From a virus (lineage: Duplodnaviria > Caudoviricetes), in the IMG/VR virus record IMGVR_UViG_3300029258_003380, positions 33,967-97,966 of that record: DNA of 64,000 nt. One strand, given 5' to 3'. Numbering within the stretch: the stretch's first letter is position 1; each line of letters begins with the position of its first letter. The translations under genes and the position numbers were made by a program. Shown piece by piece: positions 8,796-34,196 of the stretch. The notes under the pieces are model-generated. The model made no database searches. It was not told the DNA's origin and saw only the letters and a list, made by a program, of their open reading frames with translations.

Positions 8796-9113
8796 ATGGC
8801 ATTTCCAGAAATCAGACTTTATGAATTTGATGAGAACCCGGCCGGCACTTTGCCACTTGGCGATGGTCACGTACACGACGTGAGGCAGATGTCGGACAAG
8901 GGTTATGAGTTCAAGACGGCCCTTGGTTGCGCTGCGGTCTTTACTCTCGAGGGATCCGTAGCCGGCAGCGTATGGACGACGATACAGGCCGGGATAGGTG
9001 CGGCTGATGCTCAGGGTTCTATTGGAGACGAATACAACTACGTGCGAGTCAATGGGACGACTGCGGGTGTGTTGTTAGGCGCTGAACTGAAGATAGCAGG
9101 GAAGGTACTGTAA
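8796..9113 (+). CDS. Small beta-sandwich protein, probably virion-associated
   Basis: AAGGAGG RBS; FTLEGS...WTTI...YNYVRV pattern; coupled to portal. Confidence 0.7.
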   Translation: MAFPEIRLYEFDENPAGTLPLGDGHVHDVRQMSDKGYEFKTALGCAAVFTLEGSVAGSVWTTIQAGIGAADAQGSIGDEYNYVRVNGTTAGVLLGAELKIAGKVL

Positions 9114-11029
9114 TGGCCCCCCGGGTAAGGAAGAGCGGCAAAGCCGGGGCTACAAGAAAAAGTAACGACCCAGCGTTCCACGTGGACGTTCGCGAGATAC
9201 TGGCCAAGGCATCTGTGATGACCGGTCGTGAGGTTAACGAGTCCTCTGCCATTGCTGCTCTTGACACACGGCGTGACATGTACGGCGATTCAGGCGCCGT
9301 TGAGCCGCCATATGATCCGGAGTCACTGCTGAACTACATCGAATTGACACCACACCTCGCGCCCAATATCGCCAGCTACCAGACGAACATCGAGGGGTAT
9401 GGCTACCAAGCTGTAGTGAAAGTGCCTTGGATGGAAGATCTGGACAGCGAAGAAGCGACGGAGGCTATCCGTAACGCACTCCAGATCGAGAGGTATGTGG
9501 ACCAGGAGGAGGCGATTTTAGCAGCGGCTGAAAAGGCAGAAGACGATGCGCCAGTGGATGTGGACGACGGCGGCGAAGTGACCGACGAAGAAGTGGATGA
9601 GGTGCGCAAGAAGTTGGCAATTGGCCTACGCAGGGAAGAGTACTTCTTCAATGCATTCTTCGATACCTGTTGCAGCACGATGTCGTTCATCAAGCTTCGC
9701 CGAATCACTAGATTTGACATCGAGGGCAATGGGTGGGGCGCGTGGGAAATGCTCGAGGATGGTTATGGTAGACTCAAGCGGCTCAACTACATCCCAGGAT
9801 ACACAGTGCGCCCAATGCGTGACGAGGGAGAACTAGTCGAGACAACGGAAGACGACCCGATTACACCATTGTCAGAGGGACGTGAGATCCCTGTGCATCG
9901 CCGGTTCCGTCGGTATGTCCAGATAGTTGGAGATCGGAAGTCTTATTACAAATCCCCCAATGATCCCAGAGTGATAAGTGCCACTACGGGCAAGATCTAC
10001 AAGTCAGTGGAGGAAATGCGCAAGCCCAAAGACGATGGCGGCGAAGGAAAGAATGCCAGAGAAGCCAACGAGTTGATCTACATACCGCTCCATGACCCGC
10101 GTACGCCGTGCCCTCCACCTCGCTGGATAGGCAACCTGCTGGCAGTACTTGGTGTACGAGAGGCAGACGAGACCAACTACTTCTATCTGGACAGTAGTGC
10201 GATACCACCAGGCATCTTGTTTGTTGGAGGCGGCAAGGTACCACGGGATATGAAGGACCGACTCGAGCAGCGGATGACACAGGAGTTTGGTGGTAGCGAG
10301 AACCGTCACAAGATCTTAGTTGTGGAGGCGCATCCGATGAAGCAAAAGGGTGAGGAGCGGACCCTGATGCCGACAATGGAGTTTGAGTCACTTCGTGGAG
10401 CACAGCAGTCTGACGCCACATTCACGAACTACGACGAACGCAGTGCCGACAGGATAGGTGCTTCGTTTCGGTTGCCTCCGATGCTGCGTGGTTACACACC
10501 AAAGAATCTGAATCGTGCAACTGCCATCGCGGCACTTTCGTTTGCTGAGGAACAGGTTTTCGAGCCAGAGCGCGAGGACATCGACTGGATCATCAACAAG
10601 TACATATTGCCACGGATCGGTGTGACTCTTCATACCTTCAGGTCAAACTCTCCACCGACCCGTAGTCCGGAGGAAATTGCCGAGCTGATCAAGGTTGCAG
10701 CGCCTAATGGTGGATTGCTTCCATATGAGATTCGTTCGTTATTGGGCGATGCCCTGAACCGTGGCCTAGCGAAAGTCGAAGAGGAGTGGGCTCGGTGGCC
10801 AATGCCGATGACACTTGCAGGGATTGGCGATGGCGGACAGGTCACACCAGAAGAGGGTGATGAAGAAGCCGTTCTTTCAATGGGCCAAGTGACAAACCAG
10901 CTAGATCAGCTCACAAAGCGTGTCGAAGCGATCTTGACCGATGAGTTGCGCCAGGCCGGGTTTGATTTGGATCTTGAGGTTTCAGCGCGTAATATAGACG
11001 AGCTGCCCGTGGAAGGCGACGATGAATAG
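9113..11029 (+). CDS. Portal protein (PBSX-like)
   Basis: VEPPYDP, DIEGNGWGAWE, IGASFRLPPMLRG, FAEEQVFEPERE motifs; position after terminase. Confidence 0.9.
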   Translation: MAPRVRKSGKAGATRKSNDPAFHVDVREILAKASVMTGREVNESSAIAALDTRRDMYGDSGAVEPPYDPESLLNYIELTPHLAPNIASYQTNIEGYGYQAVVKVPWMEDLDSEEATEAIRNALQIERYVDQEEAILAAAEKAEDDAPVDVDDGGEVTDEEVDEVRKKLAIGLRREEYFFNAFFDTCCSTMSFIKLRRITRFDIEGNGWGAWEMLEDGYGRLKRLNYIPGYTVRPMRDEGELVETTEDDPITPLSEGREIPVHRRFRRYVQIVGDRKSYYKSPNDPRVISATTGKIYKSVEEMRKPKDDGGEGKNAREANELIYIPLHDPRTPCPPPRWIGNLLAVLGVREADETNYFYLDSSAIPPGILFVGGGKVPRDMKDRLEQRMTQEFGGSENRHKILVVEAHPMKQKGEERTLMPTMEFESLRGAQQSDATFTNYDERSADRIGASFRLPPMLRGYTPKNLNRATAIAALSFAEEQVFEPEREDIDWIINKYILPRIGVTLHTFRSNSPPTRSPEEIAELIKVAAPNGGLLPYEIRSLLGDALNRGLAKVEEEWARWPMPMTLAGIGDGGQVTPEEGDEEAVLSMGQVTNQLDQLTKRVEAILTDELRQAGFDLDLEVSARNIDELPVEGDDE

Positions 11030-11261
11030 CCTGTTTTCAAAACCTCGAGGAGTGTCTGTTGGAGACGTATTTATCAACAAGGAATTGGAGGCGAAGGGTG
11101 AGCCTCATCCGATGCGCGTAGTTCGTGTGAAACGGGTAGACGATACAGGAATGATCCTGCTTGTATCGAATATTTACGGGATTGGTGGCATGGAGCATAC
11201 AGTAACCAACGAAACACTACGTAAAGAATATCGAAGTGAAAAAGAAGGAAATGACAAGTGA
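11022..11261 (+). CDS. Small hypothetical protein
   Basis: Overlaps neighbours at both ends. Confidence 0.6.
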   Translation: MNSLFSKPRGVSVGDVFINKELEAKGEPHPMRVVRVKRVDDTGMILLVSNIYGIGGMEHTVTNETLRKEYRSEKEGNDK

Positions 11262-12376
11262 TTTCGAAACTCACAAGTGACAACATCCAGGGAATGCTTA
11301 ACGCACTTGATCATCCCGTGGCAGCGAAGATCAATGAGATCATCGACATGGTGAACGCAGGTGGCATTCTTCAGGACCTCCAGAGCGTTCTCGACACCGG
11401 AAGCGTGGCTGCTATCACCACGCCGTTCGACATCGGCTTCGGGATGCTCGACGTCTTCGACCTCGTTGCAGGTCACGGCACGGTCCACGGAGCCTTTGAC
11501 ATATCCAGTACTAACACCTATGGACCGGCGTACCCACCAAGGGACCCAACTGCTGCCCTTGGACCGTCGTCGTTCGCGGCTGGATTTCTTAACGAGGTCA
11601 CTGGGTACGCCGCAGCTGCCTTTGCGGGAACCAGCAAAGCCACAGGCTCATATGCCTTCGCTCAGGGCGAGAACTGTGAGGCATCTGGGTATGCTAGCCG
11701 CGCTGTCGGAGATCAGTGCAAGGCGGCTCACTCTTACACCGAGGCCAGGGGCTTCAACTGCGAGGCATCGTACTATTCGGCGCTGGCGATGGGGGGGTTC
11801 TGTCGAGCTACTGCGGCGTCGGCAACAGCGATAGGAAATGGCTACTGGAATGGTGGTTCTATCTACAGGTGGCTCCAGGCTCACGGTCAAGGCGCGTTCA
11901 ATTTGTCATCGGTCAATGGGTCATACGGTGCTGCACAGACCGGAGCCTCTGGTGCAAGGTCTTTCATCTTGGGGGGAGTCAACCACGAGACCGAGGCCGG
12001 ATCTGCCGATGCGATGATTCTTGGCGGAGGGAACGTCAAGATGGAGACCAGCGCCTTACGGTCTGTCGCCATCGGCCTTATGAATGCCGTCATAGCTGAC
12101 CCAGACAAGGTATACCTCCGGAACTTGAACCTATGGGATGCGGTGCCACGGGATGACTCCCTCACTGAGTTGTTGGCCTACAAGCCTGCCGACAAGTCAG
12201 TTCAGTACGTGGACAAGACTTCTGTCTCAATGCACCTGGGCTACGGAGCAACAGGAGCGAGGCCGGCAGGCCTAGTCGGGACTGATACTGGCAAGCAATA
12301 TTTCGACACCACCGTTGGAGCGCCGATTTGGTGGAACGGATCCGGGTGGGTTGACGCTAGCGGCTCGCCCATCTAG
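11258..12376 (+). CDS. Fibre-like protein with YadA-head-type 14-aa beta-roll repeats
   Basis: Repeats ATGSYAFAQGENCE/ASGYASRAVGDQCK/AAHSYTEARGFNCE; C-terminal YFDTTVGAPIWWNGSGWVD. Confidence 0.8.
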   Translation: MISKLTSDNIQGMLNALDHPVAAKINEIIDMVNAGGILQDLQSVLDTGSVAAITTPFDIGFGMLDVFDLVAGHGTVHGAFDISSTNTYGPAYPPRDPTAALGPSSFAAGFLNEVTGYAAAAFAGTSKATGSYAFAQGENCEASGYASRAVGDQCKAAHSYTEARGFNCEASYYSALAMGGFCRATAASATAIGNGYWNGGSIYRWLQAHGQGAFNLSSVNGSYGAAQTGASGARSFILGGVNHETEAGSADAMILGGGNVKMETSALRSVAIGLMNAVIADPDKVYLRNLNLWDAVPRDDSLTELLAYKPADKSVQYVDKTSVSMHLGYGATGARPAGLVGTDTGKQYFDTTVGAPIWWNGSGWVDASGSPI

Positions 12377-12387
12377 AGGAGGAAGAC

Positions 12388-12459
12388 ATGAACAAGATAG
12401 ACGACAAACCGAAACCGGGGCAGCCCGACCCTAAGAAGTGGCCACCCGAGTGCGACTAG
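12388..12459 (+). CDS. Putative 23-aa micropeptide
   Basis: Strong GAGGAGG RBS; MNKIDDKPKPGQPDPKKWPPECD. Confidence 0.45.
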   Translation: MNKIDDKPKPGQPDPKKWPPECD

Positions 12460-12484
12460 TAGTGTGATGACAAGTAACTATAAT

Positions 12485-12604
12485 GTGTCGTTGGCGGAAT
12501 GTTATACGCAGCCCTCAGGTAAGGGGCTCGTTGAAAATGGTGGAACATCTGTTGTTGAACAGTATTAAACCTCAACGATGCAGGTGCGAATCCTGCACGG
12601 CACA
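12485..12604 (+). tRNA. Non-canonical tRNA-like RNA with 52-nt variable region; identity uncertain (GGT in the 7-nt loop, Leu-like body)
   Basis: Acceptor GTGTCGT/ACGGCAC, D arm GCGG-AATGTTAT-ACGC, anticodon arm GCCCT-CAGGTAA-GGGGC, T arm GCAGG-TGCGAAT-CCTGC, discriminator A, then CTA. Confidence 0.75.
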
Positions 12605-12673
12605 CTACGCAGACATTATAACCATCCACGAAAGGAGGACAGCATGTTGAAATAGAAAAAGGAGAAGTGCAGA

Positions 12674-12901
12674 ATGTCGCACCACAAAAGACGTAAACCT
12701 AGGAATCAACGCGCCGGATGTAAGCAGTGCAAGCCATGGAAAATAAACGGGGTTGGTAAAGACAAACCAATTTCGGAAGCATGGTCTGATTACAAGCGCA
12801 GACAATTTAAAATGCGAGACATGAAAGAAGACATCGCAGGACAAGATTCAATCATCGTAGCCAATTGCCGGGAGGAGAAGCAAAATGGGAACCTTCCCTG
12901 A
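12674..12901 (+). CDS. Small basic hypothetical protein
   Basis: AAGGAG RBS; RAGCKQCKPWK. Confidence 0.7.
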   Translation: MSHHKRRKPRNQRAGCKQCKPWKINGVGKDKPISEAWSDYKRRQFKMRDMKEDIAGQDSIIVANCREEKQNGNLP

Positions 12902-33845: not shown

Positions 33846-34196
33846 ATGCACGAAAACAGCCGTTATCGTTATTGTACAGTACTCGACTGGGGAGATATTG
33901 GTGGTACTGCCGGCGTCAAGTTATTGGACGAGCGCGAACCGTTTCGATTTAGAGATGAGTCGGACAATACTTTCTACACAGCGCGAGCTGGTGATACGTG
34001 GTGGGGTCTGGCGTGGAAATTCTTCAGATCCTTTCGAAATCCATCATTGTTGTGGTTTCTTCTGTGCGAGTATCAGCCAACACCCGTTGTCGATCCGACG
34101 ATTGCAATAGTTGGTGGCCAGCAAGTTGTCATTCCATCTGAGCGAGTTCTCAGAAATTATGTGTTTAGTCGCGAACAGCGGCGATATCACGCGTAG
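33846..34196 (+). CDS. LysM-like (P2 gpX-type) baseplate protein
   Basis: YTARAGDTWWGLAWKFF...LWF...VIPS. Confidence 0.75.
   Translation: MHENSRYRYCTVLDWGDIGGTAGVKLLDEREPFRFRDESDNTFYTARAGDTWWGLAWKFFRSFRNPSLLWFLLCEYQPTPVVDPTIAIVGGQQVVIPSERVLRNYVFSREQRRYHA

Follow-up and report, generated by a model that had tools for sequence, protein, structure and literature searches.

A leucine-type tRNA shell with a non-canonical middle in the head-gene operon of a tailed phage, a candidate member of a phage RNA class

Between the portal gene and a MuF-like head gene of a tailed phage (Duplodnaviria; Caudoviricetes), the IMG/VR record IMGVR_UViG_3300029258_003380 carries a 120-nt element that folds as a tRNA and holds 52 nt where the variable region of a tRNA should be. 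What is this RNA, could it decode, and how did it come to lie among head genes? We examined it in a stretch of 64,000 nt (positions 33,967 to 97,966 of the record), hereafter the window, whose numbering is used throughout; the parent virus record is 97,966 bp long and 100% complete according to CheckV. A first-pass annotation, made by reading the letters of the window, had placed the element between the portal and MuF-like genes, and this location holds. We favor, with somewhat better than even confidence, the reading that it is a tRNA-derived, non-decoding RNA gene with a leucine-type shell, a member of a class of phage RNAs, which came in as part of a cassette. Its tRNA origin, its leucine-type shell and its likeness to the class are established by the sequence comparisons given below. 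The instance is new, and the kind is already known from the stable RNAs of phages T4 and T5.

Fold and shell of the element

Re-inspection of the window sequence returned the same letters for 12485-12607 as had first been described, and the cloverleaf drawn from them is the minimum free energy (MFE) structure of these 123 nt in RNAfold (-43.2 kcal/mol, z -2.8; equalled by 4 of 200 shuffles). All helices are intact, with 20 base pairs (bp) in the shell and 15 in the arm, 35 together and zero mismatches in the MFE fold, and the internal arms are retained when 256 nt are folded in context. The initial outline of four paired stems, altered loops and a 52-nt arm is therefore confirmed by the sequence and by the MFE cloverleaf. 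Coordinates and motifs are collected in Table 1.

The element shares with canonical tRNAs the four-stem cloverleaf, the 7-bp acceptor and the 5-bp T stem, and departs from them in the curated score, in U33, G18G19 and U(psi)55, and in the variable region (52 nt vs ∼13-21). Its D loop has GU in place of GG, so that the equivalent of G19 is U19, while A14 and A15 are kept; the anticodon-like stem is a GCCCU/GGGGC helix, and the last base of the arm, 12579, is the equivalent of U48. In tRNAs, U33, U55 and G19 build the anticodon U-turn and the elbow. A33, G55 and U19 strongly disfavor decoding by the element, as judged from its letters, and bear out the original description of a tRNA-shaped RNA that keeps its stems and departs from a working tRNA (A33, G55, no GG and a CTA tail).

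The D arm (UGGCGGAAU..ACGC) is of the class II tRNA-Leu type, and the best local matches of the 5' half were tRNA-Leu D arms (among 82 ARAGORN-predicted tRNAs in the loci fetched at that point). Together with A73 and the covariance score reported below, these matches uphold the earlier assignment of the D arm and discriminator to the leucine type. Set against class II tRNA-Leu (RF00005), the element agrees in the acceptor, U8, the D arm GCGG-AAU..-ACGC, U48, the T arm and A73; it differs in that tRNA-Leu has a variable arm of ∼13-17 nt, U33, G18G19, U55 and a Leu anticodon, whereas the window has 52 nt, A33, GU, G55 and GGU at the corresponding places.

A strict structure script (four stems, U8, G53-C61 and a T loop T[T/G]C[A/G]A, on both strands) found the element as its single match when run over the 97,966-bp genome, and no match in any of 30 genomes shuffled by a Markov model. 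The four stems without the signature bases are not significant (the genome has 2 such places, the shuffles 0.7 on average). ARAGORN at default settings returned 0 tRNAs in the window and 0 in the whole genome, and its default -m run found no tmRNA; Rfam at gathering thresholds gave no match in the window, and yielded neither a tmRNA nor a phi29-type pRNA. The E-value mode of Rfam, applied to 12300-12800, brought up the tRNA family RF00005 at 13.9 bits against a gathering threshold of 29 (E 6.6), with the T arm and acceptor alone aligning, and no other family besides this weak tRNA match. When the arm was deleted in silico, five of seven versions, in which part of the basal stem was left, were called by ARAGORN at default settings as tRNA-Thr(ggt) starting at 12485; a deletion that left one base on each side was called as a tRNA with an undetermined two-base anticodon, and removal of the whole arm gave no call. 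Because shortened versions are called, the length of the arm is the main reason that tRNA finders miss the element.

A mobile hairpin dropped into the variable loop was rejected, because the arm occurs once in the 98-kb genome and its longest matches elsewhere measure 13-17 nt. A sigma-70 promoter at TATAAT, 12479-12484, was considered and rejected, there being no usable -35 box and no entry for it in the list of the promoter scan.

Table 1. Features of the element and of its surroundings, in window positions
Feature	Position	Strand	Remarks
tRNA-shaped RNA gene	12485..12604	+	leucine-type shell (class II tRNA) enclosing a non-canonical middle of 69 nt; 12604 is A73
Acceptor stem, 5' strand GUGUCGU	12485..12491	+	pairs with 12597-12603, 7 bp including one G-U
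U8, G9, leucine-type D arm GCGG-AAUGUUAU-ACGC, A26	12492..12510	+	D stem 3 bp; D loop without GG
Anticodon-arm-like hairpin, loop CAGGUAA	12511..12527	+	5 bp; A at position 33, GGU at 34-36
52-nt arm	12528..12579	+	7-bp UCGUUGA/UCAACGA, 3-bp GGU/ACC, 5-bp CUGUU/AACAG, GUUG loop
T arm GCAGG-UGCGAAU-CCUGC	12580..12596	+	5-bp stem; G at position 55
Acceptor 3' strand ACGGCAC, discriminator A, trailer CUA	12597..12607	+	no encoded CCA
Lineage-specific insertion (cassette), ∼412 nt	12476..12887	+	holds the RNA gene, the mini-ORF leader and o75; edges approximate
Relic o164 start, ATG ACA AGT	12467..12475	+	stranded by the insertion; relatives have ATG GCA AGC there
Shine-Dalgarno AGGAGG and 3-codon mini-ORF (ATG TTG AAA TAG, 12644-12655)	12633..12655	+	leader kept before o75 relatives
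o75, 75-aa basic CxxC protein (MSHHKRRKPRNQRAGCKQCKPWKING...)	12674..12901	+	non-conserved C-terminus overlaps the new o164 start at 12885
Portal gene	9113-11029		tblastn to annotated portals; Pfam Phage_portal below cut-off
Virion structural gene	11258-12376		PHROG
MuF-like head gene, 1049 aa	13762-16911		weak MuF match

A class of phage RNAs with leucine-type shells

A scan of IMG/VR with the pattern GGCGGAAY-N5-10-ACGC-N62-92-GGTKCRAWTCC, which allows U or G at position 55, gave at least 116 viral loci; a second, narrower scan added 13 subclass loci, and the pooled scans hold at least 64 distinct elements. The figures that follow are among the matches listed. A perfect 7-bp acceptor stem closes 64 of the 117 matches, one more has 6 pairs, and the remaining 52, with four pairs or fewer, are ordinary tRNA-Leu genes with another tRNA after them. 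The 64 members measure 107-140 nt (mean 122). Their D-arm bases are invariant, and U55 is present in 64/64, U48 in 60/64 and A73 in 53/64; the trailer is CTA in 10/64 and an encoded CCA in 3/64. The middles are unalignable and fold into assorted hairpins, among which a perfect anticodon-arm-like hairpin occurs once in the 64, and no 5-mer is enriched in them above shuffles; GGUAA, tried as a shared loop motif, was rejected at 9 observed against 6 expected.

Twelve of the 64 lack GG in the D loop. The missing GG had been listed at first among the altered loop bases; shared in this way, it signals by itself neither special selection nor decay. A subclass at 13 loci combines a D loop AAUGUAAAG (also given as AATGTAAAG) with the T stem GCAGG/CCUGC, close to the AAUGUUAU and GCAGG/CCUGC of the window.

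Most members are solitary, 17 of the 64 having a tRNA within 500 nt. No neighboring gene is common to the class (neighbor clusters hold at most two members), and none of the 116 class loci listed contains a homolog of o75, the protein gene that accompanies the element in the window; a link of the class to o75 or to any other neighbor is thereby ruled out. ARAGORN misses the class elements, whereas the Rfam tRNA model picks up some of them at 36-41 bits. A blastn search of phage records with a whole class element gave no match, and a 36-nt shell query matched mostly annotated tRNA-Leu genes and was uninformative. Examples lie in loci L079-L194 and L202-L212, among them L099:10-148, L190:3845-3965 and L093:3663-3775 on the minus strand.

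One 110-nt element met in these loci, L182:3439-3548 on the minus strand, has a leucine-type D arm, a canonical elbow, an encoded CCA and an AU-rich variable arm of ∼40 nt. Its anticodon stem has 5 bp and its loop reads CUGUUUA (GUU; position 37 is U). By appearance the element is a genuine tRNA whose arm is oversized.

Does the window element belong with these RNAs? We built a covariance model, R1, from the shell structure of 57 class members, leaving the window out. R1 matched the element over its full length (model positions 1-115) with 53.3 bits and E 9e-12, compared with 49.5 bits for T5 RNA1, 27.4-45.6 for tRNA-Leu genes and 21.8 for T4 rnaC; the element of L190, whose sequence is in the training set, scored 80.8 bits. 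The element has the perfect 7-bp acceptor closure of the class, a length of 120 nt within its 107-140, U8-G9, the D arm GCGG-AA..-ACGC, U48 and A73; it departs in the T loop, which reads UGCGAAU and not the canonical UUCRAWU. Its D and T arms lie 2-4 changes from those of class members, and the T arm is that of six members except for U55G. The middle is unique, yet its first 17 nt form a perfect anticodon-arm-like hairpin.

On this sequence evidence, the place that suits the element best is a large leucine-shell phage RNA class; it stands between true class II tRNAs and anticodon-less shells, because its G55 is unique and its anticodon-like hairpin is kept. An intermediate of this kind, in which the hairpin and a distinct long arm coexist, may illustrate how anticodon-less shells arise from leucine tRNAs. 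The giant variable arm of the first-pass annotation is present as a 52-nt arm of three helices; the preferable reading makes it one part of a non-canonical middle of 69 nt, such as is typical of the class.

Several observations weigh against this assignment. The search pattern was drawn from the window's own D arm and T loop, which biases what the class means. The R1 gap between the window and genuine tRNA-Leu is ∼8 bits, and much of what the model detects is the tRNA-Leu shell plus length. G55 occurs in 0/64 listed members although the patterns allowed G; jointly with U19 it does away with the two contacts of the elbow, a loss that could reflect decay or make the element a poor substrate for processing enzymes. 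The hairpin is kept, unlike in 63/64, and the element could instead be an odd true tRNA. The class loci listed have neither an o75 nearby nor a shared neighbor, and the o75 pairing is thus specific to this phage. In the 256-nt fold, 12459-12466 competes with the acceptor 5' strand for 12600-12607; the segment concerned, GUAGUGUG, lies immediately left of the insertion junction, and its potential pairing partner is CACACUAC in the 3' part of the element.

Finally, none of the searches made yielded a homolog, either of the whole element or of its 69-nt middle. Blastn found none among 50,697 phage records; neither an exact 24-mer of the T arm and acceptor nor an 18-mer of the D arm had a match in viral contigs, and the D-arm pattern combined with a G55 T arm had none in genome contigs. 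The element is absent from 10 related phage loci (blastn and ARAGORN), from 51 metagenome o75 loci (blastn) and from L001-L078, which include 68 o75 loci (structure scanner). Homologs with a covarying arm, which had been proposed as a check, were thus sought and not found, and middles without homologs are the rule in the class; selection on the arm is therefore conjectural.

The closest annotated counterpart that we found is T5 RNA1 (NC_005859 30501-30644), which is annotated, as is RNA2, as a "tRNA-like stable RNA with unknown functions"; the annotation as stable RNAs implies that both were observed as RNA species. Like the window element, the T5 RNAs are phage-encoded (∼125-145 nt) and have an acceptor closure, with a T arm of canonical type; in RNA1 the D arm (GCCGGAATTGGTAGACGG) is moreover of the leucine type and the long middle is non-canonical. 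They differ in lying in a large tRNA array, whereas the window element is solitary, stands in a head-gene operon and is known from sequence alone; the latter also keeps the anticodon-like hairpin and has G55 and a GG-less D loop. A looser analog is the species 1 RNA of T4 (rnaC, NC_000866 70908-71046), which with species 2 RNA (rnaD) belongs to the small stable RNAs of the phage tRNA region. In rnaC a T arm and a closing helix surround a long middle, as in the window, but it has no leucine-type D arm and its R1 match is weak (21.8 bits); rnaD has no tRNA-like fold. A 2010 review says of rnaC and rnaD that their "biological roles are unknown" (PMC3014915).

Apart from the stable RNAs of T4 and T5, the literature listings, abstracts and passages covered contained no description of the leucine-shell class. 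In a survey of IMG/VR for structured RNAs, tRNA-like candidates come up only in general terms, and its supplementary tables might list members (PMC10690425). As a singleton the window element is of moderate interest, and of greater interest as part of the class.

Arrival in the head-gene operon, rival explanations and proposed working

Alignment with three related loci (L001, L003 and L010) reveals ∼412 extra nt in the window, between the stop of a 23-aa ORF and the gene o164, and 10/10 related IMG/VR loci, with portals 69-83% identical, are without the element. The GC content is 45% over 12460-12884, compared with 58% and 52% in the flanks. Within the inserted DNA the tRNA-shaped element comes first, forming the left end of the cassette 10 nt from the left junction, followed by the Shine-Dalgarno and mini-ORF and then by o75; the start of o164 now lies at 12885, inside the end of the inserted DNA. 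Comparison with relatives thus establishes that the element arrived by insertion, together with the leader and o75, and indicates that such genes move between unrelated phages. To the stable tRNA-like RNAs of phages the window adds a case that stands alone within an operon of head genes and was brought in on a small cassette.

The 23-aa ORF left of the insertion (12388-12459, MNKIDDKPKPGQPDPKKWPPECD) is rich in proline and lysine, has a strong ribosome-binding site and is kept in the four closest relatives. In these relatives its stop abuts, or couples to, the start of o164, the next gene.

The main rival to a non-decoding class member is a hitchhiking relic, that is, a dead copy of a tRNA shell or tRNA gene that recombined out of a tRNA array with o75 and is functionless and slowly decaying. 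We regard this as unlikely, though a serious contender. In favor of a relic, the element lies right at the border of the insertion, no other tRNA is encoded by the phage, and relatives of the phage manage without the element; in addition, G55 is unique among the 64 listed members, no homolog turned up in the searches made and, compared with the closest class shells, the changes hit otherwise invariant loop positions. On the other hand, all 35 bp are paired without a mismatch, although the placing of all three changed loop positions off the stems is not significant (estimate ∼0.17), and a D loop without GG, being conserved in a subclass, does not count as damage. We also considered a working tRNA with a giant variable arm that reads the Thr codons ACC/ACU through GGU and is charged with Thr or, given the leucine-type body, Leu. 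The perfect 5-bp stem and 7-nt loop at the anticodon position, and the conversion to tRNA-Thr(ggt) when the arm is shortened, speak for it, as does the L182 element, in which a Leu-type body, a ∼40-nt arm, an encoded CCA and a canonical elbow are combined. It is nonetheless improbable in view of A33 in place of the near-universal U33, G55 in place of U55 and U at the G19 equivalent, of 13.9 bits in Rfam where 29 are needed, and of the lack of any other tRNA in the phage; a GGU decoder charged with Leu would, moreover, mistranslate Thr codons.

The first-pass annotation had also raised an intron-bearing tRNA. ARAGORN with -i does give exactly such a model (12485-12605), in which removal of a 29-nt intron, 12520-12548, yields a 92-nt class II tRNA-Leu(CAG), and CUCAGGU resembles a Leu(CAG) anticodon loop. 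This idea, which we rate as very improbable, rests solely on the forced model: the spliced anticodon stem is weak, with a C-U mismatch and a G-U pair, it throws away the better GCCCU/GGGGC helix, and permissive models are cheap, ARAGORN -ps70 -i producing 307 of them in this genome. Group I introns are far longer than 29 nt, and we know of no bacterial or phage mechanism that removes a tRNA intron of this length. A further explanation is an RNA linked to packaging, comparable to the pRNA of phi29, or else a cis signal for the head module; a size of ∼120 nt and a place between the portal and MuF-like genes would suit it. It is the least probable of the explanations considered here and is largely refuted by the 10/10 related loci that have the same head genes and lack the element; the surrounding DNA is a foreign cassette, the signatures are of tRNA type and no Rfam family other than the weak tRNA match applies.

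That the stretch is no RNA gene at all, being coding (the ORF 12483-12650 of 55 aa, or a relic ORF 12464-12568) or a chance fold, is likewise only a slight possibility. Open frames do cross the element, and the relic start at 12467 could drive a 33-aa peptide. The arm 20-mer AATGGTGGAACATCTGTTGT (12536-12555) recurs exactly in five viral contigs (L196-L200, three unrelated sequences), all of which read protein-like and yield NGGTSVV when translated in the relic ORF's frame; in the window that frame is open from the relic o164 start (12464/12467-12568) and ends ...ENGGTSVVEQY*. Similarity to the five contigs stops not far past the shared peptide, and the sharing is probably a compositional coincidence, with a coding origin of the arm still conceivable. 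The 55-aa ORF has no tblastn match at E<=1 in the 50,697 phage records and no Shine-Dalgarno ahead of 12483, and the tRNA signature bases and an R1 score far above chance argue against coding and chance alike.

Returning to a tRNA-derived, non-decoding RNA, we propose the following working. The element would be transcribed on the plus strand within a long head-gene transcript; host RNase P would cut at 12485, because the acceptor/T-arm helix is intact and U stands at -1, and 3' processing enzymes would trim after A73. A stable tRNA-shaped RNA would be released, and the same cut would fix where the leader-o75 message begins. For relatives of o75 in tRNA arrays, the tRNA upstream would likewise set the 5' end.

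Leucyl-tRNA synthetase of Escherichia coli reads much of what the shell preserves, namely A73, A14-A15, U48 and the D-loop architecture. Because the preserved shell overlaps with these recognition parts, our best guess, by analogy, is that the released RNA would be a non-decoding tRNA look-alike, serving as substrate, sponge or decoy for a tRNA-binding factor. G55 and the GG-less D loop suggest a loosened elbow, and the copy in the window may thus be partly degenerate.

Two groups of known RNAs offer analogies. Defense nucleases cut class II tRNA-Tyr in its variable loop, and phage tRNAs withstand or absorb such cutting (T5 tRNA-Tyr against retron-Eco7, T6 tRNA-Tyr against Septu), a "distinctive variable loop" conferring resistance (PMC13096335). 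These are phage class II bodies, as in the window, with the variable loop as the point of attack, but they are working tRNAs with arms of normal size and shown effects, whereas a decoy role for the window RNA is conceivable by analogy. YrlA, a bacterial Y RNA, is described as a non-decoding, tRNA-mimicking partner of Ro60, with a tRNA-like acceptor, D and T module (PMC4201824). A search of the 100%-complete phage genome found no TROVE (Ro60) gene, while the positive controls were found, and together with the lack of any Rfam match besides the weak tRNA this disfavors Y RNA identity. The ends of YrlA, furthermore, lie in the Ro-binding stem, not in the acceptor.

We speculate further that leucine-shell RNAs are anticodon-less, engage RNase P, the CCA-adding enzyme and perhaps leucyl-tRNA synthetase, and act as exchangeable decoys or sponges against host factors that attack or sense the tRNA body or variable arm, such as Septu- and retron-type nucleases; the window copy, with its oversized variable arm and its imitation of an anticodon loop, would be such a decoy, mobilized with an o75 that acts in the same pathway. 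As a whole this proposal, built on analogy, is doubtful. With at least 64 distinct examples, missed by ARAGORN, the class is large, and a known function would bear on conflicts between phages and hosts over tRNAs.

The companion gene o75 and its leader

The protein encoded by o75 belongs to a family with the signature MSHHKRRKPRxQRAGCKxCKPWK.NG (431 clusters at E<=1e-3 in a profile search), for which no Pfam, PHROG or NCBIfam family was found; the ESM Atlas returned unnamed phage clusters alone, plus a low-confidence model. An identical protein is on record in three contigs. We collected 68 o75 loci, 59 of them distinct. A tRNA or tmRNA lies on the same strand within 400 nt of o75 in 17/59 distinct loci, upstream in 15, and the closest relatives (76-80% identical) stand in phage genomes of 176-195 kb, between tRNA-Met and tRNA-Ile and beside a tmRNA. 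The leader, laid out as GAAAGGAGGA, a mini-ORF of 3-7 codons, a stop, a second ribosome-binding site and ATG, is present in the window and in 8/10 other loci shown (L011, L012, L014, L021, L028, L033, L034 and L068). Judged by these sequences, o75 encodes a small, basic protein that belongs to phage tRNA arrays and is preceded by a translational leader; because its relatives often lie in such arrays, the cassette looks like a piece of one.

Two complete o75-bearing jumbo phage genomes contain over-long tRNA-like matches that ARAGORN does not call. One of 113 nt (G002:C1:99014-99126, L221) has an acceptor closure and a T arm, with one tRNA gene called in the fetched stretch; the other, of 150 nt (G004:C1:385730-385879, L222), has an acceptor closure and a T arm, ends in CCA and lies among 10 called tRNA genes. 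Neither has a canonical middle. With such elements in o75-bearing genomes, a single donor that carried both the RNA and o75 is plausible.

Some further features of the tRNA arrays around o75 relatives deserve mention. L011:2830-2950 and L012:2600-2765 have in common a GC-rich stretch of ∼120-160 nt that ends in the hairpin GGCGGGTGGAAGGCCCG; its position relative to tRNA-Met differs between the two, and it has no Rfam match at gathering thresholds. The 176-kb and 195-kb phages to which these loci belong each encode a tmRNA (around 2075-2570; Rfam 96-106 bits). In one of the two there is, besides, a tRNA whose anticodon is UUA (L012:5476-5551), a possible ochre suppressor that hints at stop-codon reassignment.

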